Shown: piece by piece, positions 4,543 through 24,648 of the stretch
How positions within the stretch are numbered: position 1 is the stretch's first letter
How the letters are laid out: every line of letters starts with the position of its first letter
DNA from: a virus
Lineage: Duplodnaviria; Caudoviricetes
Virus record (IMG/VR): IMGVR_UViG_3300042363_001420
Length of the DNA: 64,000 nucleotides
Reading direction: 5' to 3' (one strand)
Made by a program: the position numbers and the translations under genes
The notes under the pieces: model-generated
What the model was told of the DNA's origin: nothing
What the model saw: only the letters and a program-made list of their open reading frames with translations
The model's database searches: none

Positions 4543-5277
4543 TCACGGTCTAGTACTTGCTGTAGATTCAAACAGCACATCATAAAAAAATGTCAGCGAA
4601 TCTGATTTTTCTACTGTGCGATAAGCATCGATAACTGCTTTATCGATGTACTTAGGATTTGCCCACCAGTCTTCGAAATAAATTTCAAACTCGGGATTAA
4701 ATCTGCGATGCACCGGTAGGGCAATGTCGCCGGCAATCATAACGTAACCAGCTTTTTCTAATAATTCTCTACCGATATTTCTTGCATCCTGGCTTTCGCC
4801 GTTGTTGTCCCAAGCATCATGTTCGTAAGTGATTAATCCAAACTCTTGAGTCTTTAAAACAGATGTCAATACCGAAAGATTAGCACTGGGCGGCGCAATA
4901 TCAATTTGCAAATAATCAAAGTAATCAGGAAGTATAGAATAATCATATTCTGTAGCATTGGCAGTGATTAATTGAGAGTTAGGTCTGTGCATACCCCACA
5001 TTTTAGCATATTCAGCACCGCCTGGTAAATCCATGCTAACGCCAGACCAACCTAGCAATTTTTCCAAAAGCCAGGTATTGTTCTCTCTATAATCGTCATT
5101 ACAGCCGATTTCTAAAAAAGTTCCTTCTCGCTTGCCTTGAGTGAGTGCTATTACAAATAAATCTTGACCTGCTTCGCTTTGTCTACCACACAGCATCTCG
5201 GGATGAAAATTGTTAATAAGATATTTAAATTTTGATCCGCTCACTGTTTCAGTCGCTCCATGGTCAAGATACGACAA
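4543..5277 (-). CDS. FkbM-family SAM methyltransferase-like protein
   Basis: SEAGQDLFV...GTFLEIG...NNTWLLEKLLGWSG...YLQIDI...ITYEHD...EDWW. Confidence 0.75.
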   Translation of the reverse strand: MSYLDHGATETVSGSKFKYLINNFHPEMLCGRQSEAGQDLFVIALTQGKREGTFLEIGCNDDYRENNTWLLEKLLGWSGVSMDLPGGAEYAKMWGMHRPNSQLITANATEYDYSILPDYFDYLQIDIAPPSANLSVLTSVLKTQEFGLITYEHDAWDNNGESQDARNIGRELLEKAGYVMIAGDIALPVHRRFNPEFEIYFEDWWANPKYIDKAVIDAYRTVEKSDSLTFFYDVLFESTASTRP

Positions 5278-5591
5278 AGTTCTTGATCAAAGTCCTGTTC
5301 ATCGGCTACAAGATAACTGGTTACCTGTGGTTCTTCGTAGTTGGTTGCACTTTCCTTGCTGGGATGTCGAATTGTTACAACATATCCACCCATGACTGAT
5401 TTGATGTCAATTCTCAAACCGGTTTCAAGCCTATGTGTGTCAACGGCTGAAGGAAATGGTACTTCATTACCCCCATCTCGATAAAGACGATCTACGGCAT
5501 CTTGTTCAACCTTCCATTCCGGATGTAGAATGTTGGCACGATGCCAACACCAACGAGCTTTATTATAGAACCAACGATCGAACCATCTCAT
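5241..5591 (-). CDS. Hypothetical protein; start revised to MRWFD
   Basis: ATG immediately follows the clamp gene stop. Confidence 0.6.
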   Translation of the reverse strand: MRWFDRWFYNKARWCWHRANILHPEWKVEQDAVDRLYRDGGNEVPFPSAVDTHRLETGLRIDIKSVMGGYVVTIRHPSKESATNYEEPQVTSYLVADEQDFDQELCRILTMERLKQ

Positions 5592-5592
5592 G

Positions 5593-6324
5593 TCATTTGC
5601 TCTGTGCAGGCAAGATATAATTGTACTCAGCAATACCAGAATTAACTGTGATCATTGCAGCACCGTCGTCGCTGATACGTACAATCTTGTCACCGGTGAG
5701 ATCCATAATGCTGATAAATTGTTTGACTGGCCAACTCCACGTGCGTTTTAATGCTCCGGAAACACCGGGCTGAAATACAAATTCACCAGCATGAGTTGAA
5801 TGATCACCAAAAGAAAATTTCAAATCGCCTTTGTCAGTTTTGGCTTGAAATGTATTTTCTTCAGCATTGGCAGATGCTTGCATTTTAAGTCTTTGAATAC
5901 CAGCCACAGTAGGTTCAAATTCCACGTGCCATGTAACGCCTTTGAACTTGGCTGTTTTTAATTTTTCGTTTGCAATTTCGGCAGTCATAAATCTATAGTC
6001 GTTTTCGAAATCTCCAGTTGAGTTTTCGAAATGCAGTCCCGACAGCATATCTATGCCGTTGCGATTTTGCTTTAGTACGTTGATACGAGCATTTTCTCGA
6101 TACTCACCGAGATTAAGCAGAATTTTAAGTTTGTTGAGATTCGGCATTCCAAAAACACCAATAAACTCAGCAACTGGCACTAAAAATTTACCTTCAACTA
6201 CTACCGAAAGATCTTCGGCAACAGAGTTAATCAAAGTTTCATTCTGGTCACCAGTAATTTTAACTATATCGATGCAACCTAAGTCGTATGTGTGTTCTAC
6301 TAAGTCTAATAAGTAATCTTTCAT
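5593..6324 (-). CDS. DNA polymerase sliding clamp (gp45/PCNA-like)
   Basis: 243 aa with FGMPNLNKLKILL and C-terminal GIAEYNYILPA; near polB, with a clamp loader elsewhere in the window. Confidence 0.7.
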   Translation of the reverse strand: MKDYLLDLVEHTYDLGCIDIVKITGDQNETLINSVAEDLSVVVEGKFLVPVAEFIGVFGMPNLNKLKILLNLGEYRENARINVLKQNRNGIDMLSGLHFENSTGDFENDYRFMTAEIANEKLKTAKFKGVTWHVEFEPTVAGIQRLKMQASANAEENTFQAKTDKGDLKFSFGDHSTHAGEFVFQPGVSGALKRTWSWPVKQFISIMDLTGDKIVRISDDGAAMITVNSGIAEYNYILPAQSK

Positions 6325-14770: not shown

Positions 14771-15474
14771 GATGTTCTGATTTTAGCTAACTTCAGCCAA
14801 GACAAAGTTTTAATCCAAAACCAACCGATGTCAAATTCCCACCACATGCGACTCAGCTTGGGATTGGCTGCATCCAAATGATGGTTATTATGTAATTCCT
14901 CACCGCCAATGACAATACCCCAGGGTATTAAATTGGTACTGCAATCCTTAGAGTCGCCGTTTCTGTATCCCCACCAATGTCCTAATCCGTTGACTACACC
15001 TGCTGCCCAAAACGGAATCCAAGCCATTTGCATCAGCCACATAACAATACCCCATCCATTAAACAAGGCAGTTTCGATGATCAGCAACAACAAGACACCT
15101 ACTACGCTGTAGCGACTGTAAACGTTGCGTTCCATCCAGTCGTTGGGTGTGGCATAGCCCAGTCGATCAACCATTTCTTGATCTTTAGAAGCTGAATTAT
15201 ACAACCAAGCACCGCCTAGCAACACACGCCAGATGCCGTGTATATGTGGACTATGAGGATCTCCAACTCGTTCACATTTTTGATGGTGTAATCTATGTAC
15301 CGCTACCCACTCTTTAGTGACCATGCCTGTGGTCAACCATAGCCAAAAACGCATCACATGTGATACTGTAGGATGCAGTTCGACTGATCTGTGTGCTTGA
15401 CTACGGTGTAGGAATATAGTCACTGACAATATAGTCAAGTGAGTCATTATTAAAACCAAAATTAATTCTGTCAT
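14764..15474 (-). CDS. Membrane fatty acid desaturase (delta-9 type)
   Basis: His boxes HRSQAH, HRLHH, HNNHH; WEFDIGW. Confidence 0.93.
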   Translation of the reverse strand: MTELILVLIMTHLTILSVTIFLHRSQAHRSVELHPTVSHVMRFWLWLTTGMVTKEWVAVHRLHHQKCERVGDPHSPHIHGIWRVLLGGAWLYNSASKDQEMVDRLGYATPNDWMERNVYSRYSVVGVLLLLIIETALFNGWGIVMWLMQMAWIPFWAAGVVNGLGHWWGYRNGDSKDCSTNLIPWGIVIGGEELHNNHHLDAANPKLSRMWWEFDIGWFWIKTLSWLKLAKIRTSP

Positions 15475-15812
15475 TTTCCGTCCTTGGCTAATCGAGCACC
15501 TTTGTTGAAACTGGGGCTATAGGGACTGTTGCCTTCTACACCGCCACGGGCCTTGCTCCAAGCATAGCCAGCACGATGCCCCGAACAGTCTTTGGTACAC
15601 TGACTGCCCAAGAATTTTAGTTCGTCCAATTGAGCCCGGGTCCACTCGTCGGGAATTGTTCCATGTTTTTCCACAAACAAATCGTGCAATTTTTTAGCAG
15701 TAATACCATGCTCACGAGCAATGGTCTGCATCATGTGATCTATTGCATCATAACCGGTTGGATTTTTTAGATCTTTTTCCAATGCGCCCACTGCAAATTC
15801 TGCAGCTCTCAT
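15471..15812 (-). CDS. Putative internal head protein (MRAAEF leader)
   Basis: Shared N-terminal leader; CTKDCSGHRAGYAW. Confidence 0.6.
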   Translation of the reverse strand: MRAAEFAVGALEKDLKNPTGYDAIDHMMQTIAREHGITAKKLHDLFVEKHGTIPDEWTRAQLDELKFLGSQCTKDCSGHRAGYAWSKARGGVEGNSPYSPSFNKGARLAKDGK

Positions 15813-16036
15813 CTAGCGCCTTTAAACCATAACTTGAACCATTCTTCAGTTCCAGGTTTAATGTTATGCTGGCGTTGTATTACACCGCAGTTGGTGTCTT
15901 TAATATTAGGTAGGCTCATACGTTTAGCTTCTCGTGCTGCTAAATTGTTGTATATAGGATCATCAGGCGGCATCACACAATCGGGCTCTGTGGAATAACT
16001 CAAATCAGTAGTTGAAAAACAAATTCGATCAATCAT
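15809..16036 (-). CDS. Hypothetical protein; start revised to MIDRI
   Basis: ATG follows GAGGA right after the upstream stop; C-terminal NIKPGTEEWFKLWF. Confidence 0.6.
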   Translation of the reverse strand: MIDRICFSTTDLSYSTEPDCVMPPDDPIYNNLAAREAKRMSLPNIKDTNCGVIQRQHNIKPGTEEWFKLWFKGAR

Positions 16037-16037
16037 G

Positions 16038-16445
16038 TTAATCCTCAATAGGGCCACCTTCAACCCAAGCTGAACAAGTGCGCTTGGCAGCACATTTAAA
16101 TTTTAAAAACTTGCAGTAGCCCAAGGTACCAGCGTCGATTGTGTCAGCAGGGTCGCTACTGGGCTCGCTGCCAATACCCTTGGCAATACAGTCCTGCATT
16201 TTCTGCGTGATATCAAATGCTGCACAGTTGCCGCAACGAGCTGACTTAGCTGATTCGGCATCATCCATGTTCCATTCTGCTGCAATTCGACTCCAGTATT
16301 CTTTGTTGGGTTCATTGGGATCAAGAGGGCCATACATATATTCATCTATGGCCTTTTTTCTATTGCGCAGATTCAAATCGATACTCTGAGTTGCCGATGG
16401 ACAACCCTGCTCAACAGCTTCTAACAAATTTAATAAATCTCTCAT
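16038..16445 (-). CDS. Cys-rich putative internal head protein (MRDLLNLLE leader); start revised
   Basis: RCGNCAAF...GYC...FKCAAKRTCSAW; ATGA coupling with the upstream ORF. Confidence 0.65.
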   Translation of the reverse strand: MRDLLNLLEAVEQGCPSATQSIDLNLRNRKKAIDEYMYGPLDPNEPNKEYWSRIAAEWNMDDAESAKSARCGNCAAFDITQKMQDCIAKGIGSEPSSDPADTIDAGTLGYCKFLKFKCAAKRTCSAWVEGGPIED

Positions 16446-16582
16446 TCGGCTCTCACTTGTTTGACGGCATCTGACATCATTTTTCTTGCCTGTGTCCAAC
16501 TTGCAGCAAGAAATGTAAATTCAACAGATTCCGTTACACCCGTCGAATTGGCTACTGGTAACCAAAATTTAAACTGTTTCAT
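16442..16582 (-). CDS. Small hypothetical protein, 46 aa (not in ORF track)
   Basis: MKQFKFWLPVANSTG...QVRAE; AGGAG upstream; stop overlaps the next ATG. Confidence 0.6.
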   Translation of the reverse strand: MKQFKFWLPVANSTGVTESVEFTFLAASWTQARKMMSDAVKQVRAE

Positions 16583-16606
16583 AACCTGCTCCTTTTATTA
16601 TTTTTA

Positions 16607-16678
16607 TTACACAGGGCTATAAGGATTTCTTTTTTGATCTGAATCAATTGGTACTTCCGGATACACTGGATAATCCAT
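16607..16678 (-). CDS. Candidate 23-aa micro-ORF MDYPVYPEVPIDSDQKRNPYSPV
   Basis: TAATG coupling to the upstream stop; fills the gap. Confidence 0.4.
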   Translation of the reverse strand: MDYPVYPEVPIDSDQKRNPYSPV

Positions 16679-16914
16679 TATCGACAAATCCTTACATTAC
16701 GGTAAGTGCGATAATAAGAGTCCCAACGCTGTGTCCAATAGCATGTGGGCTGACGATAGTAAATAGGCGGCGCAGGTCTATAGTACACAGGTGGTGCTAC
16801 ATACACCGGGCGAGGTTGTACATAAACCGGTGCAGATGGCACATAATAAGGTGTGTAAGCTACACAACCCGAAAGGCCAATTGCGGCAACTGCTGCTATC
16901 AGGATTCTTTTCAT
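16678..16914 (-). CDS. Pro/Tyr-rich lipoprotein
   Basis: Signal peptide with lipobox LSGC; PVYV repeats. Confidence 0.75.
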   Translation of the reverse strand: MKRILIAAVAAIGLSGCVAYTPYYVPSAPVYVQPRPVYVAPPVYYRPAPPIYYRQPTCYWTQRWDSYYRTYRNVRICR

Positions 16915-17078
16915 TTGATATTTCGACTCTTTGATCGTTTGGGTGCTGCACTTTCTTTAGGCACACAGTTGGGCACAGTACGGCCACCTTTCTTTTTGGT
17001 GCCTGCTCTTCGATAGCCAATCCAACAGGAATCTGCGGCAACTTCATTCAATGCAGAAAATAGTTGATTTAGTCTCAT
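16911..17078 (-). CDS. 55-aa basic putative internal head protein (not in ORF track)
   Basis: MRLNQLFSALNEVAADSCWIGYRRAGTKKKGGRTVPNCVPKE...; stop overlaps the next ATG. Confidence 0.7.
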   Translation of the reverse strand: MRLNQLFSALNEVAADSCWIGYRRAGTKKKGGRTVPNCVPKESAAPKRSKSRNIK

Positions 17079-17096
17079 AATAGTTTATTATACCAA

Positions 17097-17501
17097 TTAT
17101 TTTGTTTTGCTTGCAACATTTCGTGCAGCACCCTGGCGATCGGGATTCTTGTCTTTGACACGTTTGCGTCGTACTGCTGCTGCTATAGCACTCTTACCAC
17201 CAGACGCACGTAGGCTGGCAGCACGACTCTTGCTTAGACACTTGGGTTTGCCTTCGCCGGGTTTACGATCTCCGCATTTGCCAATTCTTTCGCCTTTGGT
17301 GTTGTATCTATCCCAACCACCGCCTCCAGCACCACCACCTTTGCCTGTACCAAACCAGTCGCGTAGATTTTCTGCTAGGTCTTCGTTTTTGTTGCGACCG
17401 GCACAATGCGCTTTTTGGCTAAAGCCCTTGGGATTGGAGCAGTTGATGCTGCTCTTGTATTTTTTACTCCACGCCTCGGCTACGAATTCATCGGCTCTCA
17501 T
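17097..17501 (-). CDS. Basic putative internal head protein (MRADEFVAE leader); start revised
   Basis: ATGA coupling; modules WSKKYKSSINCSNPKGFSQKAHC and LRDWFG...KPKCL. Confidence 0.7.
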   Translation of the reverse strand: MRADEFVAEAWSKKYKSSINCSNPKGFSQKAHCAGRNKNEDLAENLRDWFGTGKGGGAGGGGWDRYNTKGERIGKCGDRKPGEGKPKCLSKSRAASLRASGGKSAIAAAVRRKRVKDKNPDRQGAARNVASKTK

Positions 17502-18607
17502 TTTTTGCTCTTGTTGCCCCAGTTGGCAGCACCCACCTTTCGGCATTTTACCAAAGCTCCGGATGCATAAGCACTGGGCCAAATCTTGTAGCGACTTTTT
17601 ACTTTGTTATAGCAGGCGTCTTTGCCGGCTTCGTCGAGGTAGTCGGCCGATTCTGTCTGAGTACGACGTCGTGCGCAGTACATTTCACAGGCCATGACAG
17701 CTTCGTCCAAGTTGTTAAACTTGCTGTTGGCTGTTTTGTTTTTGATCGACACACGGAACCCGTCGTCTTCGTTGCCGTGGATCTGTATTTCATGTCCGTC
17801 ATCTGTGGTCACAGTTTTGACTGGTGGACCCATTTGATCACCAGGTGCCTTAGCTGCCAACTTGTCTATCAGATCAGGATCTTTTTTAATCTCTTTGCCG
17901 ATGTCGCTCAAGTAGTCTCCTAATCGAGCTTTTAGTTTAGTGATGATATCTTCTTTGGTGATATCTTCTTTGAATATCCAGCCGGGTGGTGGAGTTTTTG
18001 TTACATAGTGACTAGCTATATTATCACCTTGTATAACAACCACCTTGTACTCGCCTTTGGCATTGGGACCTGTTACGCTTTGAATACGTTTTTGGAAATC
18101 ATGTGAGTCTTTGCTGGGATCTGATCCCATAGTTGTAGTTAAAGTCCGATCACTTTTTATAGAAGTATCATATCCAGATGTTCCCCAGCTGGGATCAAAC
18201 TTGTCAGTGGTTTGAGCTTGGGCGCCGCCGCCGAACGCAGCAGCACCAGCAAGAACGGCACCTGCTACTTTCTGCTTTATACCTTCTTCAACGCTTTCAT
18301 CATAGTGCCCGGGCTGTGCTTGGGCTTCTTCGTAACCGGCCATCCACTGTGCATGCTCAGCTGTGCCGGGCTTGTACGGACATGCAGTTTCGTCTTGCCC
18401 GGCTCGATGACCAGCACGCCAGCCTTGATCATAAGGATCTTTGCTGCTGATACTTTCGTTGGCGCCCACAGCATAACCAGTCATAGGATGACGAGGATCT
18501 GTGGGGCTGTTTAATACGCTTATTTTTTTCGGACGGAACATAGCAGGCAGCTGCGGAACCGAACGTTGTTGTTGATTAAGAGACTCTAAAAGTTGATTTA
18601 TTCTCAT
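17498..18607 (-). CDS. Modular putative internal head protein containing an RMF-like segment
   Basis: MRINQLLES leader; YDQGWRAG...ACPY...WMAGYEEA; C-terminal DACYNKVKSRYKIWPSAYASGALVKCRK. Confidence 0.65.
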   Translation of the reverse strand: MRINQLLESLNQQQRSVPQLPAMFRPKKISVLNSPTDPRHPMTGYAVGANESISSKDPYDQGWRAGHRAGQDETACPYKPGTAEHAQWMAGYEEAQAQPGHYDESVEEGIKQKVAGAVLAGAAAFGGGAQAQTTDKFDPSWGTSGYDTSIKSDRTLTTTMGSDPSKDSHDFQKRIQSVTGPNAKGEYKVVVIQGDNIASHYVTKTPPPGWIFKEDITKEDIITKLKARLGDYLSDIGKEIKKDPDLIDKLAAKAPGDQMGPPVKTVTTDDGHEIQIHGNEDDGFRVSIKNKTANSKFNNLDEAVMACEMYCARRRTQTESADYLDEAGKDACYNKVKSRYKIWPSAYASGALVKCRKVGAANWGNKSKK

Positions 18608-19044
18608 GCTCGATCTTCTTTCAAAAATGATTTCAGCATCCAGCCGTGCTTGCCTTGTGCATCAATGCGTCCAGCTATAAAATCTGCAATGCCCTGTTGG
18701 TTTTCTTGTTCGGCACTGGCAAAACACTGGTTCAACAGGTCAATTAACACCAGATTGTCTTCTAGCAGTTCCTGCAGCATAAGTCTGGCTCGCGGCACTT
18801 TGATTTGCCCCGAAATTAAACTGAGTTCTTGAAAACGTTCAAAAGATCCTGGTGTATATTCTTCTAATATACGAATGTATTCGGCAGTGGCATCAATTGC
18901 TTCGTTTACTTCTTCGTAGATTTTGCCAAAGAACTTGTGAAGCTGGCCAAAGTACATTCCTTCTACATTCCAATGAAAGAATTGAGCTTTGATTACAAAT
19001 GCGTATTGTGTGGCCAATAATGTCTTTAGATCATCTGCGAGCAT
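18604..19044 (-). CDS. dps: Dps / ferritin-like DNA protection protein; start revised to MLADD
   Basis: KAQFFHWNVEGMYFGQLHKFFGKIYEE...DATAEYIR...KHGWML. Confidence 0.92.
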   Translation of the reverse strand: MLADDLKTLLATQYAFVIKAQFFHWNVEGMYFGQLHKFFGKIYEEVNEAIDATAEYIRILEEYTPGSFERFQELSLISGQIKVPRARLMLQELLEDNLVLIDLLNQCFASAEQENQQGIADFIAGRIDAQGKHGWMLKSFLKEDRA

Positions 19045-19201
19045 CAGGATTACTTCCTTTATAGGTATTACGATATTTAGCTGGTCTAACACTTTGTGTT
19101 CTTGTTATTAAACCGCCCAGAGGAACAGCAACAGCAGCAACACTACCACTAGAAGTTGCGCCAGCAGAAGCTGTCTCTCGAATGAATTCACGTGCTCGCA
19201 T
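19031..19201 (-). CDS. 56-aa putative internal head protein (MRAREFIRE leader; not in ORF track)
   Basis: Manual translation MRAREFIRETASAGATSSGSVAAVAVPLGG...DARR. Confidence 0.7.
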   Translation of the reverse strand: MRAREFIRETASAGATSSGSVAAVAVPLGGLITRTQSVRPAKYRNTYKGSNPDARR

Positions 19202-19484
19202 TTGTTATCTCCACTGTTTCATTGTCGATCCAACGGCCTGGACCGTGATCAATAGTGCGATTTTCGACACGAATTTTTCCGGTCTTTTTATGTAGAGGTT
19301 TAAGCTGTATCTTGTATTGACCAGGCGGTGCAGATATCTGCAGCATTTCAGAAAGATATTCGTCTCGCCAAATATAAGTTCGTTCAACAAACAATTCGTC
19401 GTTGACAAAAATCCTGTACACCGGCGGAGTATCACGCCAACTACAGTAAACATCAAATTTAATTTGTACGAATTCTGTTTGCAT
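19188..19484 (-). CDS. Hypothetical protein; start revised to MQTEF
   Basis: PPVYRIFVNDELFVERTY; TAAATA 5 nt upstream of the ATG. Confidence 0.65.
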   Translation of the reverse strand: MQTEFVQIKFDVYCSWRDTPPVYRIFVNDELFVERTYIWRDEYLSEMLQISAPPGQYKIQLKPLHKKTGKIRVENRTIDHGPGRWIDNETVEITNAST

Positions 19485-19530
19485 AGTGATATTTATCAAA
19501 AAGTACGTCTATTAATATCACTGCAACCAA

Positions 19531-19740
19531 TTACTTGATTTTGACTTCGCGCGGTTGTCCGATTATTATACCAGGTACGTTGTATTGAACTTGTACTATC
19601 TTGCGAGCCATTTGCGGATTTACAGCCATGACAGTAGTAAAGGTATTGGTATTACTGCCTCCTAGCACCGGGATACGAATACGTATCTCATAAGTCTTGA
19701 GCTTGGATTTCTTAGGCTGTGCTATTTCTTGTAGTCGCAT
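19531..19740 (-). CDS. Putative internal head protein (MRLQEI leader); start revised
   Basis: TAAATA 4 nt upstream of the ATG; shared leader. Confidence 0.65.
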   Translation of the reverse strand: MRLQEIAQPKKSKLKTYEIRIRIPVLGGSNTNTFTTVMAVNPQMARKIVQVQYNVPGIIIGQPREVKIK

Positions 19741-19751
19741 GATGTATTTAG

Positions 19752-20345
19752 TTATATTACCCAAGGATCCACAATGACTGGAGTTTTGCCACGTCGCATG
19801 ATATTACCAGAATGTAGATCAAAGGACCAACCGTTTCTTTCGCCGGTTAGGTATACTTGTCGAATAGTAGCAAACAATATTTTCATTGCATCTGCTCCTA
19901 ATTGTTCTTTCAGTTTTTGATAATAAAAATAACCCTCGAGCTGTTTATCTAATTGTTTGAAGTTTCGAATACCATTATGTTCCACGGAATCTGCTATTTC
20001 TGACAAGGTATCGCCCATGTAGCCAGCTGGTTTCAGGGCTTCCTGTCTGATTTGTAAATAACGATCACCGTCTAACACAAAGCTCTCGTATCCGCTGAAC
20101 TTTGGCAAGAATGGATTTGTGCTGTTTTTTATGCAGTACTTGGCCCAAGCAAAGAACATCTTATGATCACGACTGAATGATTCACCTCCTTGTGTGCCAA
20201 ACACCTTGAGCACAAGGCCAGTACTGGGTTCTAAATAAGCAGTTTGATCAACACCGGCACCTAGACGTTTGTAACCCTTGTCTTTTAAGATACGGTCGAT
20301 CTTTTTATCAGTTGTACTGAATTCTGTTAGTTCACTTGCTCTCAT
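19752..20345 (-). CDS. Protein kinase-like enzyme with MRASELTE leader
   Basis: Gly loop LGAGVDQTAY, VLKVF, catalytic loop DLHSGNIM, IVDP. Confidence 0.8.
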   Translation of the reverse strand: MRASELTEFSTTDKKIDRILKDKGYKRLGAGVDQTAYLEPSTGLVLKVFGTQGGESFSRDHKMFFAWAKYCIKNSTNPFLPKFSGYESFVLDGDRYLQIRQEALKPAGYMGDTLSEIADSVEHNGIRNFKQLDKQLEGYFYYQKLKEQLGADAMKILFATIRQVYLTGERNGWSFDLHSGNIMRRGKTPVIVDPWVI

Positions 20346-20905
20346 TTCTTTTTACCTGACTTCATATTAGCACACCAATGATACATTCGGGCACGTTCAC
20401 CGCTTGCTGCTTTGGCTCGTTTGCGTAAGCTGGTAACTGATCCGTTGCAACTGGCACCGGCACGTTTCACACGCCCAGGGCGACTTCGACCTTTGACCTT
20501 GCCATCGGCAAAGTTTTCATTCAAAGATGTGTTTAAGAACTGTTCGCCTTTGCCTGTGACATACCAATAACCATCGTCATCTACAATATAACCATTGCTG
20601 CTTAAACTATCAAGCACATGGTCGTAAGCAGCAGTACGCGATTCGTCTTCCTGAAAATCCATACCCAGTTGTGCAGCAGTGTAGATGGCATGTAGCACTA
20701 GAATTTTACCCAGTCCTTGACTTTGAAATTCGGGAATAATCTCGGCAATGCTACGTCCCGTGTCGGCATTGTATTGATATACACCAGCTGGTTTATTGTT
20801 GACAGTTAAAGTAGTGGCAAATTTATTTTTACCTTTTTGTACTTTGAAACTAATCTTGTCTTGACCATCGGCAAAGTTTTCAGTTATAAATTCACTAGCT
20901 CTCAT
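20342..20905 (-). CDS. GNAT acetyltransferase module inside a basic protein with MRASEFITE leader
   Basis: Acetyl-CoA motif IIPEFQSQGLGKILV; ENFADG occurs twice. Confidence 0.7.
   Translation of the reverse strand: MRASEFITENFADGQDKISFKVQKGKNKFATTLTVNNKPAGVYQYNADTGRSIAEIIPEFQSQGLGKILVLHAIYTAAQLGMDFQEDESRTAAYDHVLDSLSSNGYIVDDDGYWYVTGKGEQFLNTSLNENFADGKVKGRSRPGRVKRAGASCNGSVTSLRKRAKAASGERARMYHWCANMKSGKKK
20502..20882. repeat. 18-bp direct repeat CCATCGGCAAAGTTTTCA (20502-20519 and 20865-20882) flanking the GNAT domain
   Basis: Exact match 363 nt (121 codons) apart; encodes ENFADG. Confidence 0.9.
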
Positions 20906-23900
20906 CGTTGTCCCATCTCCGGATATACTTCTACAGTATCATCAAACCTGGTTCGTTGGGCCCAATCACGTGCCACACGATTGGCAGCAGCTTGATCAGT
21001 GCTACGTAACACAAACGTATGTAACACTTCTCCTGTGGCTCCGCTGACAATTTTCCATCGTCCAGTGAACTCGCCGCCAGTTTGTGTAAAGTTCTGTGCT
21101 ACCTGGGGTTCAAGTTCTTCTGGATTTCTAGCAGCTGGAAAATTCTGAGGTTCTGTCTCAATTGGCGGTGTTGCACGTAATTCTTCAGGAGATAACGACT
21201 CTATACTGTCCAAATAAACTGATCTGCGTTCCATACCACGTGCCTCGGTCCAACGACGTGCTGCATTGATTGCGTCTCCGGTGGTTCCGGCACTGAATCT
21301 ATACAGTATAGGACCCACACCTTCGTTGCCTTCTCTACGTCTTAACACAAAATTGCCACGAGGATCGTCTGGTACCGGTGCATTGAGTTGATCAGTTGCC
21401 GGAGTCTGTGTAGCAGGCGCAACTGGTTCTGCACGATAAGCATCATCGGGATTCATAGTATCGTTGTATTCTTGCTTGGCCAGTTTGATAGCTTCTTCTG
21501 CTGTTGTGGCCATGAGTGTAATCGTGGCACGTCTATTGGGGTGCGTTACTTTCCACTGAATCTTTTCCGTCGGTGGATTTTTAGCAACTTCGCGACCGTA
21601 CTGTAGCTGCTTGAGAAAGCCTTTGAGTTCTGACTTGGGCAGGGCACCAGCCACATAACGACTGAAGATACTGATGGCATCATTGTCATTTTTGCCTTTT
21701 ACCTCAGTGCGTTTGCGTCCAGTTTTGGGATCCGTTACTTGTTCAGTTTCCGTACGGGTCAACAGCTTGTACAACTTCTTAGCATACTCAGCCTTTTCTG
21801 CAGCAGGATCCATGGCAATGTCAGTGGCTCTAGCATAGCGCATGAGTGTGTTCTGTATCTTGTCCATGTCCGCAAAATAGTCACTGCCACCAGCTGAACG
21901 GAATTCAATGTAGTTGCTTTTGGGATTGATACTGGTATACTTGCCGAAACCGCCAGGCTGTGCGATGGCTCTGGAAGCAAATTGATTTAAATGGTTGCGC
22001 ATAGCCGACAACACAGCGTCGGCTCGAGTTTCAGTGGCTTCAGTCAAGGACTTGCCCATGCTATCGCGAATCTTGCTGATGGCACTCTTGGCGTAGGTGT
22101 TGGCTTCACGACCAAACTGTTTCAACACATATTCATCACCTAGGAACAGGGCCAACTTGGTATAATCCAGCACATTCTCGCCATGATCCGGCATGCTGAC
22201 ACTCATGTGGAAACCAGTTGAGTCATTGGCATAGGCACCGTTGTCTTTGGCCCAGGCAAAGAATCGAGGCAAGATTTCTAAGGCTTCGCCCAAGGGCATA
22301 GGTGGACTCACAATCTCCACTGGCATGTTGGCATCATCATCGGCTTCTAAACTGCCATCGGGTTCGAAGATCCAAGTACTGGTGTCACGTCGAGCACCGT
22401 GATAACCCGTGCTGACAGTGGTTGTAACATCTAACTTATCTGCCAAGTCATCAGCTAACTGTTGTGCTGCATCTTCGTTAAATCCACCTTCAGAGCTGCC
22501 ACCTGACATGGTCATGTGTGGCCATGTGAAATCAAAGTTATAAGATAAATCGCTCATGTTGCGCCAACCGCGATCACGCAACCAGTCGCTTTCATCCTTG
22601 TCCCAGTTTTCTCTAAATTCGTCTAAAGCACTTTCGTAATCGCTGTTGTGTTCTTCTATGGCCAGTTCTACACGTTCATCCAGTTGTCGCTCAACTTCTC
22701 GTTCGGCACTGACATATTCTTCTACCAATTCAAGATCGGCAGCAGTACCAGTACCCCTGACCCGTCGTTCCATGGCTGCTAATATTTCTTTCACACGGTC
22801 TTCGCTGTATTCATCATCTAACGCACGTTCAATAAGGTCCTCTTCGTCCCAGTCGTTTTCTTGAATCCATTCACGTACAGCAACAGGTGCATCAAACTCA
22901 TCATACAGAGTCTGGTCATACCATTCCATCCAGTCTTCTTCTAATTCGTTTCGTTGACGCCGAGACAAACCCTCGGCAAAATCACCTGAGCCGAAAAATT
23001 CTTCGATGTCGTTGATGCTGTTGGCACGTGGATCATAGCTGTAGTCAGACTCCCATTCGCCTTCTTCCTCGTTGGCTCCAAGTCCAGTAAATATCAACTC
23101 AGCTTCAAATCCAGCCATCATGCTCTGCCCAATATCGCTGGCGGCAAAGGCCTTCAAGGATCCTGGGCTCATGGCCACTTCTTCTAGATCTTGTTCGCTG
23201 ACCAAGGGAAAGCCCAAGCCTTCTTTGACTGCTTGTAGTTTTCGAGTAAGTGCTTCAACAAGTCCATTTGTCTTGGCAGTGGGGGGTGTGCCAGCAGGAT
23301 TGGTCTTCCATCCCATCTTGGCTGCTTGACGTTGATTCTCACCTGGCTTGATATCTACAGTGAGTGCCATGCTATAGCGTGGGTCTCGTGCTTCTCGATT
23401 GTTCACAGGAATGTATCCCGACGCTTCGTTGATCTGTTTACCGAAGTATTCGGGATGCAGTTCTGCAAAATCACGCATGATTACGCCAGCTAAGGCATTG
23501 GCTTCATTTTCGTATTCGCTGCCGGTTTCTCCGGCATTAACTGGCATTGTGGCCTTTTCGGCTTGACGGTGATGTGTTAGTTCATGCGCAGCCGTACGCA
23601 AGATATCTAAGGGATGTCGTCCGGCTACGCTCAATATGAGTGTATCTTCGTCGGGCATGTATCGACCGAATGTGGCATTACGTTCGCTCCAAGCCGGATC
23701 CTGCTTGAGTCGAATTTTAGGAATTGCTTGTAATTGTAATTTTTCAGCGCAAAACAATACAAAATCTTGTACGGTTTGATCGATTGACAGTTCGGCGGAT
23801 TCCCTGACACTTTCGCCACCACCACCGCCATCACCACCGTCGGTGGCAGCATCAGTTTGACCGTAGTAGTGATAGCCGGGAAAGAATACTCCACCAAATG

Positions 23901-24648
23901 AGCCGTAACGCATTTTCTTCTTGCGTTTCTTTTTCTTTTCGGTCAGGCTCAAGGCTTGATTTTTGGCTGCTAATCTAGCTGCACGTAAACGATCCAAGGT
24001 GCCGTTACTGCGCAGCACTTTGAATGCCAGGTTCTCCGGTCCAAATTCTCCTGATGCATCTAGACCTGCTTGTCGAAATGATCGCAACTTCTTACTTACT
24101 GCATCCATCTGTTCGAGGTCGCCCGACTCGATGGCAGCATCAATTCTCTGACCTATATCTTCGTACTTGCTGCGCACACTGATGTCATTGATGTCAGGTT
24201 TACGACGTTTCGGAACACTTATCCATTCATTGTTAATCACACTGTAAATGCCTTGGCTTTTGGGTTGTTCGTTGGCATTTTGAACATATAGTTCTACATC
24301 ATATCCACCAATCTTGAAATTGTGTTGATCGTTGTATTGATATTTTTTAGCATCGAACAGTTCGCGATATACATCACTAACATCAGCTCTGGGTATATCA
24401 GCTACCAAGTGTAGGTCAATATCACTGTGACCCGTGTAGGTGTAAGCAGCATTGCTGCCGCTGATAGTGATGTCTTTGACTTCAAGATCCAGGCCTAGGA
24501 ATTCTTTAAAGTCTTCGGCAATAGCTAGGAGTTTTTCGCGCACTTCGGGCAGCAGATGTTCATCCTGCCCCCAGAGTCTGGGATTCAGTGTTCGGTGGAA
24601 TTTCACGGCGTCGCTGAGACGATAGTTTTGTAATTCTTTGATGTCCAT
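20902..24648 (-). CDS. 1248-aa multidomain protein: Pol-beta-type nucleotidyltransferase, HExxH metallopeptidase and putative amidoligase (COOH-NH2 ligase)
   Basis: ISGSNAAY...SDIDLHLV; AAHELTHHRQ...ENEANA; GFEAE...EPDGSL...EIVSP...STGFHMSVS...KYTSIN...IEFRSAGG. Confidence 0.8.
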   Translation of the reverse strand: MDIKELQNYRLSDAVKFHRTLNPRLWGQDEHLLPEVREKLLAIAEDFKEFLGLDLEVKDITISGSNAAYTYTGHSDIDLHLVADIPRADVSDVYRELFDAKKYQYNDQHNFKIGGYDVELYVQNANEQPKSQGIYSVINNEWISVPKRRKPDINDISVRSKYEDIGQRIDAAIESGDLEQMDAVSKKLRSFRQAGLDASGEFGPENLAFKVLRSNGTLDRLRAARLAAKNQALSLTEKKKKRKKKMRYGSFGGVFFPGYHYYGQTDAATDGGDGGGGGESVRESAELSIDQTVQDFVLFCAEKLQLQAIPKIRLKQDPAWSERNATFGRYMPDEDTLILSVAGRHPLDILRTAAHELTHHRQAEKATMPVNAGETGSEYENEANALAGVIMRDFAELHPEYFGKQINEASGYIPVNNREARDPRYSMALTVDIKPGENQRQAAKMGWKTNPAGTPPTAKTNGLVEALTRKLQAVKEGLGFPLVSEQDLEEVAMSPGSLKAFAASDIGQSMMAGFEAELIFTGLGANEEEGEWESDYSYDPRANSINDIEEFFGSGDFAEGLSRRQRNELEEDWMEWYDQTLYDEFDAPVAVREWIQENDWDEEDLIERALDDEYSEDRVKEILAAMERRVRGTGTAADLELVEEYVSAEREVERQLDERVELAIEEHNSDYESALDEFRENWDKDESDWLRDRGWRNMSDLSYNFDFTWPHMTMSGGSSEGGFNEDAAQQLADDLADKLDVTTTVSTGYHGARRDTSTWIFEPDGSLEADDDANMPVEIVSPPMPLGEALEILPRFFAWAKDNGAYANDSTGFHMSVSMPDHGENVLDYTKLALFLGDEYVLKQFGREANTYAKSAISKIRDSMGKSLTEATETRADAVLSAMRNHLNQFASRAIAQPGGFGKYTSINPKSNYIEFRSAGGSDYFADMDKIQNTLMRYARATDIAMDPAAEKAEYAKKLYKLLTRTETEQVTDPKTGRKRTEVKGKNDNDAISIFSRYVAGALPKSELKGFLKQLQYGREVAKNPPTEKIQWKVTHPNRRATITLMATTAEEAIKLAKQEYNDTMNPDDAYRAEPVAPATQTPATDQLNAPVPDDPRGNFVLRRREGNEGVGPILYRFSAGTTGDAINAARRWTEARGMERRSVYLDSIESLSPEELRATPPIETEPQNFPAARNPEELEPQVAQNFTQTGGEFTGRWKIVSGATGEVLHTFVLRSTDQAAANRVARDWAQRTRFDDTVEVYPEMGQR

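Follow-up and report, generated by a model that had tools for sequence, protein, structure and literature searches.

A short repeated joint flanks a GNAT-like module that is present or absent in frame in a putative head-cargo gene of uncultured T4-core jumbo phages

Host defences can be disarmed even before the onset of phage gene expression if a phage injects proteins together with its DNA. To our knowledge, little is known about the evolution of such sets of cargo proteins outside T4. The internal proteins (IPs) of T4 possess a common leader that is cut by gp21 (PMC9026906), and the corresponding loci vary between relatives (PMC2839356). The capsid targeting sequence (CTS) of T4 reads MKTYQEFIAE (PMC8442874). 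Its processing is determined by residues 8 and 10 of the ten, i.e. by a hydrophobic residue and a glutamate (PMC9026906), and prohead proteases of the gp21 kind cut after glutamate (PMC5694885).

Three other systems are of interest with regard to the exchange of protein parts or of whole cargo genes. In the T-even tail-fibre adhesins gp37/gp38, segments are exchanged by recombination at or close to conserved glycine-rich motifs, as summarized from Tetart et al. (1998) in PMC3157838. T4-type phages possess variable IP loci along with mobile regulatory cassettes, termed PeSL (Repoila 1994; Arbiol 2010, PMC2839356). Finally, polyvalent proteins have been described from phages and conjugative elements, and their processing by an in-built MPTase peptidase has been proposed (Iyer et al. 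2017, PMC5512222); the words 'linker' and 'shuffling' do not occur in the text of that publication.

In the present study, we analyzed a 64-kb stretch of phage DNA, which is referred to as the window in the following. It contains a gene encoding a protein of 187 aa, in which a leader, two copies of a short joint, a GNAT-like module and a basic tail can be distinguished. The gene, its parts and its neighbours are listed here.

20342..20905, minus strand: modular gene of 187 aa consisting of leader, joint 1, GNAT-like module, joint 2 and basic tail (from the list of open reading frames and the sequence)
20879..20905, minus strand: N-terminal leader MRASEFITE, residues 1-9, similar to the T4 CTS (from the leader scan and the consensus of 172 relatives)
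20864..20881, minus strand: joint copy 1, codons for ENFADG, residues 9-14 (exact 18-mer at 20865-20882); the homology to contig L085 begins here, and residues 1-14 have a pLDDT below 50
20522..20863, minus strand: minimal GNAT-like module, residues 15-128, with the QxxGxG motif A (from the AF2 model and fold comparison); missing from contigs L090 and L089
20501..20518, minus strand: joint copy 2, codons for ENFADG, residues 130-135, following SLN (exact 18-mer at 20502-20519); the homology to contig L086 stops inside it, and residues 129-142 have a pLDDT below 50
20345..20515, minus strand: tail A, the basic C-terminal tail of 57 aa with three helices (from the alignment and the AF2 model)
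19752..20345, minus strand: kinase-like neighbour gene, also bearing a leader (phrog_15752, 9.6e-8)
20902..24648, minus strand: upstream multidomain (polyvalent-type) gene of 1248 aa, which serves as synteny anchor for the alleles; homologues lie directly upstream in L001, L090, L089 and L095
15471..20905, minus strand: cluster of leader-bearing genes that includes the 187-aa gene (from the leader scan)

The 187-aa gene is the first in a run of leader-bearing open reading frames on the minus strand. Its ATG overlaps the stop codon of the 1248-aa gene, on homologues of which Amidoligase_2 is annotated, and its own stop codon overlaps the ATG of the next gene. The window stems from a large phage with T4-type core genes, and a comparison of its family-B DNA polymerase with the enzymes of the jumbo phages Phosso and Atu_ph07 shows 47-50% identity. 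DNA and protein searches against 50,697 deposited phage records gave no match to the 187-aa gene, no family was found for the protein among the PHROGs, and Pfam gave no match over its tail.

There are several similarities to the IPs of T4. IPI, IPII, IPIII and Alt begin with a short leader that follows the same pattern and ends in a hydrophobic residue, any residue and glutamate. As in T4, small, unrelated and variable genes with a common leader form a cluster, T4-type core genes are present, and proteases of the gp21 family occur in contigs related to the window. The basic tail is also reminiscent of the basic IPs. However, the 187-aa protein does not show sequence homology to any T4 IP. What distinguishes it from the IPs are an additional joint inside the protein, in which the glutamate is followed by a strongly conserved NFADG, and a conserved C-terminal tail that is common to dozens of different cargo modules. 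Moreover, packaging and gp21 cleavage are known for the T4 proteins, whereas both are predicted from the sequence in the present case.

At our locus as well as, according to the above summary, in the T-even adhesins, variable segments are exchanged in frame, and the crossovers are located at or close to short conserved motifs. The motifs of the adhesins, however, form the structural core of one adhesin domain, whereas the joint described here connects independently folded modules of a putative head cargo as a disordered linker and is maybe also a protease site. The variable IP loci resemble our locus in that IP genes are gained, lost and replaced between close relatives at short conserved sequences. 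The kinase-like neighbour gene behaves in this way; it is a whole-gene presence/absence polymorphism that is missing in the syntenic contigs L001 and L002, and L086 carries an unrelated gene of 230 aa in its place. In contrast to the joint, which lies inside a gene and would move protein modules, the PeSL consist of promoter/terminator motifs in intergenic regions, and entire genes are moved by them. Polyvalent proteins are likewise mosaics of small enzymes (GNAT, ParB, NUDIX, nucleotidyltransferase, kinase) that are thought to be delivered with the DNA. They comprise two or more effector domains, whereas the 187-aa gene encodes only one enzyme-like module and the tail. Some of its relatives, such as P0017 (GNAT and ParB-like) and P0064 (two GNAT-like modules), do possess two or more. 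We could not find a description of the combination observed here, namely a disordered, protease-site-like intragenic joint that marks module exchange and, in addition, a conserved tail that does not belong to any known family.

The repeat was initially noticed in a reading of the sequence alone (in the following, the sequence-only reading) as an exact, in-frame repeat of 18 bp with a distance of 121 codons, and the search of the window as well as the frame check agree with this. Exactly two copies of the 18-mer are present in the 64 kb, at 20502-20519 and 20865-20882 (plus-strand coordinates), and a repeat search recovers the same identical pair, the starts of which are 363 nt apart. Both copies are in frame in the minus-strand open reading frame 20342-20905 and encode ENFADG at residues 9-14 and 130-135. 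The residues in front of them are ITE at joint 1 and LNE at joint 2, just as the sequence-only reading had given them. It had also been claimed that removal of one unit leaves a clean short gene. Indeed, the in-silico removal of one 363-bp unit results in a product of 66 aa that is 92% identical from end to end to the natural proteins P0126 and P0130, which have 66-67 aa. The search for further 18-mers that had been proposed at the same time was unsuccessful in the window, where a third copy is absent even if up to three mismatches are allowed (shuffle expectation: 0.08). Among the related contigs, one or two joints each are present in five with lengths of 260-350 kb, four of which have a completeness of at least 92%.

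Judged from the conserved peptide, the repeat is the DNA of a joint between modules, which has the form (V/I/L)-x-E followed by NFADG. Much of the exactness of the 18-bp match is owed to this peptide and its strongly fixed codons. Of the synonymous sites in the joint only three are truly free, two of which are identical in both window copies.

Downstream of a homologue of the polyvalent-type gene, four different layouts were found at one and the same locus. The window, L094-L097 and L001/L002 have the order leader, joint, GNAT module, joint and tail A. L090 carries an empty allele, i.e. a gene of 66 aa that consists of leader, joint and tail A and is located between the same end of the upstream polyvalent gene and the same start of the downstream kinase-like gene. 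According to blastn, positions 41-702 of L090 correspond to window positions 21518-20860 and positions 682-994 to 20518-20206, and the 21 nt by which the two segments overlap are the joint itself. Upstream of its joint L090 resembles copy 1, whereas downstream of it 36 of 43 positions match copy 2, compared to 10 of 43 for copy 1. The same empty form of 66 aa is present in L089, a contig of 39.5 kb that is syntenic as far as the polymerase. In L085 (94.7% nucleotide identity), the homology starts at window position 20885, which is the edge of copy 1, and a different module of 89 aa behind its own leader is found upstream of joint 1. Finally, in L086 (92.4% nucleotide identity) the homology ends at window position 20508 inside copy 2, and joint 2 leads into a ParB-like module, behind which a further joint and tail B are located.

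The GNAT module and one joint, 363 bp in total, are an in-frame presence/absence polymorphism in related uncultured T4-core jumbo phages. Since other modules are moreover joined at the same joints, the joint DNA marks the crossover points at which modules are exchanged or lost in frame. The locus can be regarded as a clean natural experiment with four module layouts at one gene position, in which the crossovers are readable to the nucleotide. The sequence-only reading had made its case dependent on the existence of empty alleles or of other inserts at the repeat, and both exist: the former in L090 and L089, the latter in L085 and L086. Its idea that modules are shuffled in frame at the joint is therefore supported by the alleles of this locus. 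It does not extend to the other mosaic proteins of the cluster, which it was also meant to explain, because the window contains no further copy of the joint. We additionally considered a fusion of two tandem leader genes via a 22-nt deletion between TGA microhomologies as the origin of the open reading frame. This was rejected, since the in-frame layout is conserved and an empty allele was found.

The protein family to which the 187-aa protein belongs is very large. In a collection of 5.8 billion proteins, we identified 3573 relatives of 102-328 aa and 530 short relatives of 30-101 aa, and none among the cultured phages that were searched. Among the best 120 of the 530 short relatives, 27 have the form leader, joint, tail. 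More than 590 loci were obtained by a scan of IMG/VR; 80 of them were retained, and the 81 DNA sources examined contain 82 NFADG sites. Glutamate directly precedes NFADG in 81 of these 82 copies, and V, I, L or M is found three residues before NFADG, i.e. two before the glutamate, in 73. In 62 of the 82 cases the site is located 55-59 residues from the stop codon and opens the conserved basic tail. The joint precedes the GNAT module, tail A, tail B, the ParB-like module and others, and the precomputed Pfam families among the relatives comprise NUDIX, nucleotidyltransferase, GNAT and ParB. Because it is found in front of so many unrelated modules, the joint is module-independent and not a part of any domain. 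A literature search for the motifs of joint and tail did not yield any publication. In many relatives, a QGVAEG linker is located directly upstream of the ENFADG joint.

The codons of the joint are conserved to a different extent. GAA is used in 79 of 81 cases for glutamate, AAC in 73 of 82 for asparagine and TTT in 79 of 82 for phenylalanine, whereas the third positions of the alanine, aspartate and glycine codons vary freely among the 82 copies. GAA and TTT are already the majority codons in the background. AAC, however, accounts for 89% in the joint compared to 44% of the asparagine codons elsewhere in the loci (binomial P of approximately 1e-17, not corrected for shared ancestry). It is possible that this preference instead reflects the avoidance of a slippery A_AAT_TTT run, which is prone to frameshifting. 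Furthermore, joint copies within one open reading frame differ by 0.7 nt on average, compared to 1.92 nt between loci (resampling P = 5e-5); for instance, the alanine codon is GCC in both window copies but GCA in both copies of the orthologues in L001 and L002. Both the codon constraint and the similarity within one open reading frame are compatible with a function of the DNA in recombination, but also with gene conversion between the copies. The latter similarity could also result from a genome-specific codon choice rather than from gene conversion.

Residues 1-9 of the 187-aa protein fit the T4-CTS-like pattern of about ten residues that ends in (L/I/V)-x-Glu, and the consensus of the leaders from 172 relatives is M-R-A-x-E-F-(I/V)-x-E. 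In the window, a leader of the type M-R-(A/L/I)-x-(E/Q)-(F/L) is present in eight open reading frames, all of them on the minus strand within 15471-20905, and none was found elsewhere in the 64 kb. Each of five related contigs of 260-350 kb contains between two and six strict leaders on a single strand, and the reversed-pattern control gave none. By analogy to the T4 proteins, the 187-aa protein is probably packed into the phage head.

A hydrophobic residue two positions before a glutamate ends not only the leader but also the joints. In the AF2 model of the 187-aa protein, which was built on 24 relatives and has a mean pLDDT of 72.8, both joints are located in segments with a pLDDT below 50 (residues 1-14 and 129-142) between confidently folded modules. 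A gene for a prohead protease was not found within the 64-kb window. Peptidase_S77, the family of T4 gp21, exceeds the cut-off in five of ten related contigs, including three of the four that are at least 90% complete, and was found in none of 14 control bacterial genomes. Because of the glutamate pattern, the disordered joints and the presence of gp21-type proteases in related contigs, cleavage at both joints by a protease of this type is plausible and would be the most probable function of the peptide. The conservation of NFADG after the glutamate exceeds what a T4-type site needs, and the motif may thus have a second function.

Considered as a whole, the following explanation seems likely to us: the GNAT module is flanked by joints at which modules are exchanged or lost, the leader targets the protein to the head and the joints are cut by a protease. 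Exchange would occur by recombination between the joints, including the adjacent conserved sequences of leader and tail, of co-infecting relatives, and loss would be a deletion between the two direct repeats inside one genome. Since each of the near-complete related genomes possesses only one or two joints, only loss between the repeats would be possible within a single genome, and gain or exchange would require a second, co-infecting genome. The leader would carry the protein into the prohead, where a gp21-type prohead protease would cut after the glutamate of the leader and of each joint. The enzyme module would in this way be freed from the basic tail, and the cleaved products would exit the virion with the DNA. 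It counts against this mechanism that exact matches of only 11-18 nt are short with regard to homologous recombination. Instead of the 18-mer, the conserved leader and the 171-nt tail could supply most of the homology and be the real arms. In addition, the breakpoints at the joints may reflect nothing but selection for in-frame joins between folded domains.

The sequence-only reading had interpreted the repeat as a snapshot of an insertion, i.e. a GNAT cassette would have recently inserted into a short leader-tail gene and left a fresh target duplication. This would agree with the observations that a filled site has exactly one module and one repeat unit more than an empty one, and that the two copies are identical over 18 nt. 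Nevertheless, a recent insertion is very improbable, since both joints flank the GNAT module in all 13 relatives down to 48% identity, whatever lies outside, and also in other gene contexts. Compared to the syntenic L001, the module is as diverged as the tail (79% and 82% nucleotide identity, respectively), its GC content of 0.40 and GC3 of 0.33 are like those of the neighbours, and we did not find any compositional sign of a foreign cassette in it. The identical 187-aa protein with the same neighbours is found on at least 17 contigs from several samples (ENA, JGI and Logan). Unlike a transposon or homing cassette with target-site duplication, the 363-bp unit consists of 342 nt of GNAT coding sequence and one joint. 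It neither encodes nor adjoins a recombinase, transposase, integrase or homing nuclease, and the genes that flank it are cargo-type. Judged by this divergence and distribution, the window allele is old and stable and not a recent insertion, and the difference between the window and L090 would be explained by a deletion between direct repeats as well as by an insertion. Metagenome assemblies can also be mis-joined at repeats, and the gene might in principle be a chimeric product of such a mis-join at the short repeat. An artefact of this kind is, however, practically ruled out, because the identical protein and its neighbours on these contigs were assembled independently in the ENA, JGI and Logan samples; orthologues with 81-88% identity have the same layout, too.

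Two other explanations concern the role of the joint itself. It might be that the repeat is simply a by-product of the conserved peptide, that illegitimate recombination takes place anywhere and that selection keeps the in-frame joins in linkers, so that the joint DNA would have no role. We regard this as unlikely, even though the joint is short and present in only one or two copies per genome, GAA and TTT are majority codons anyway, and joins are tolerated in disordered linkers such as the joints. Three independent breakpoints in close relatives are located at or within the same 18 nt and not elsewhere in the 14-residue linkers, the strong preference for AAC is found next to third positions that vary freely, and the copies within one gene co-vary. 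All of this speaks against the idea. Alternatively, the protein could stay whole and the joint could be a short binding motif or, at the N-terminus of the modules, their functional part, for example for docking to the head, the portal or the DNA. The fact that NFADG, beyond the putative cut, is far more conserved than the (L/I)xE of a T4-type site demands would favour such a function, and the extreme conservation of the tail suggests a fixed partner. But the modules that follow the motif are unrelated (GNAT, tail A, tail B, ParB-like and others), the glutamate is conserved together with the hydrophobic residue two positions earlier, the latter amid otherwise variable sequence, and the same two-position pattern ends the leader. 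Hence, a protein that is not cleaved seems rather improbable to us, and we prefer the explanation with joints that are both crossover points and putative cleavage sites.

One can go a step further and assume a truly dual nature of the joint, although this is a tentative idea that may well turn out to be wrong. The peptide would be a signal for the prohead protease, and the DNA, fixed even at silent sites, would be a dedicated joint for in-frame recombination. A vast clade of uncultured T4-core phages would thereby swap enzyme modules in a single tail-tagged head-cargo gene and create a combinatorial library of injected effectors, and the 57-aa tail would serve as a new delivery module that binds DNA or the portal. 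Provided that the joint is a protease site as well, one short sequence would solve two tasks at once, the release of independent enzymes from a packaged precursor and their in-frame exchange. The CTS of T4 has already been used for engineered protein delivery by capsids, and the leader and the joint could also serve the engineering of protein delivery by phage capsids.

The sequence-only reading had assigned the enclosed domain to the GNAT superfamily. The fold comparison and motif A agree with this assignment, whereas the Pfam match to Acetyltransf_1 remains below the threshold (E = 0.011; 16.5 bits compared to a gathering cut-off of 20.7 bits). In the AF2 model, residues 15-128 form a confident alpha/beta module with a pLDDT of 80-88. 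The best match in VIA-align is 2ou2, a MYST/GNAT acetyltransferase domain (Z of 9.0, rmsd of 3.2 A, 105 residues aligned). Further matches are 3w6s (Z of 8.3) and 6c30 (Z of 8.1), and enzymes of the GNAT superfamily make up nearly all of the 50 best rows. The leading Foldseek matches are all acetyltransferases, with E-values of 4e-3 or weaker. Motif A is QSQGLG at residues 61-66, and its glycines G64 and G66 are invariant in the relatives (alignments A1 and A2). Because of these fold matches and the invariant glycines of motif A, we accept residues 15-128 as a predicted minimal GNAT fold with putative acyl transfer activity; the N-terminal helices of canonical GNATs are apparently missing from the modelled module. 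Apart from sub-threshold GNAT matches, the only match to Pfam, HTH_45 at residues 96-126, is sub-threshold as well, and this region was taken instead as the C-terminal helix and hairpin of the GNAT fold.

Tail A is highly conserved, with a mean column identity of 79% in alignment A3, and is found behind many unrelated cargo modules in other phages. The 163 proteins that end in this tail show 65 different cargo architectures before it, according to a clustering with 70% mutual coverage. This criterion was used instead of single-linkage clustering, which collapsed all modules to one cluster via shared tails and leaders. The model of the full protein has three helices at residues 143-184, and the same three helices are obtained if the tail is modelled alone, with the first 12 residues, including the joint, disordered. 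A profile search of solved structures with the tail gave a best E-value of 0.78, and an exhaustive fold comparison gave Z-scores of at most 3.9, a level that is common for small helical units. In the ESM Atlas, a feature search found only unnamed small viral clusters. In BFVD, a library of viral models, the tail matched only members of its own family, in which it is fused to a deaminase or an N-acetyltransferase. Tail A thus appears to be a basic helical tail of no known family, with convincing relatives only inside its own family. Tail B differs from tail A in that two cysteines and one histidine are jointly changed to lysine, glutamine and glutamine.

The joint is the conserved ENFADG peptide with its 18-bp DNA. 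Among 82 copies of it from 81 DNA sources, 89% have AAC as the Asn codon, compared with a background of 44%. At this position, AAT would create the frameshift-prone run A_AAT_TTT, so that avoidance of frameshifting rivals a role of the DNA in recombination as the explanation for the AAC preference, and the two readings compete.

In tail A, the basic helical C-terminal tail (window 20345-20515, minus strand), two cysteines and one histidine are nearly invariant in the tail alignment A3 (positions 24, 47 and 49). In the same alignment, all three are switched jointly in the second tail type, tail B, to Lys, Gln and Gln. The sequence pattern suggests that the Cys/Cys/His set of tail A forms a disulfide or metal site, which would have been lost as a unit in tail B. 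Only one or two joints are found in each of the large related contigs G001-G005 (260-350 kb; the records behind L017, L049, L057, L075 and L004), which implies that each genome has a single gene with the tail. The tail may thus label one particular cargo instead of acting as a packaging signal of general use.

Four further genes of the leader-gene cluster were considered:
19752-20345, minus strand, kinase-like leader gene (compared with L001:8555-8563 and L086:1619-2311)
18604-19092, minus strand, Dps/ferritin-like gene (Pfam Ferritin, E=2.9e-21)
17498-18607, minus strand, 369-aa leader protein with a sub-threshold RMF match and a C-terminal phrog_727 match
17100-17501, minus strand, 134-aa ORF, leader plus WSxKYK...CSNPKGFSQ module (compared with L091:3001-3156 and L092:3001-3120)

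The kinase-like leader gene shows a whole-gene presence/absence polymorphism, with the leader start and the stop codon as breakpoints: it is not present in the syntenic loci L001 and L002, and an unrelated 230-aa gene takes its place in L086. In the related locus L089, a radical-SAM gene (5084-5992) is flanked by the polyvalent gene and a 66-aa leader-joint-tail gene, and the window has no gene at the syntenic position.

The Dps/ferritin-like gene does not carry a typical leader, and its placement within the cluster is kept in the relatives L089 and L094-L097. Residues 59-96 of the 369-aa leader protein give a sub-threshold match to Pfam RMF, ribosome modulation factor (E=4.9e-5; 23.7 bits vs a cut-off of 27.9), and the basic, Cys-containing C-terminal end of this protein has hits to function-unknown PHROGs (phrog_727, 3.2e-22).

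For the 134-aa ORF, the leader ATG at 17501 agrees with the gene calls of relatives, and the TTG start in the ORF list, which gives 161 aa, is probably wrong. Cultured T4-like cyanophages also have the module that follows its leader (Bellamy gp122, SynMITS9220M01_096). In them it makes up tiny genes with a T4-CTS-like start, flanked by the genes for the tail fibre and the large terminase.
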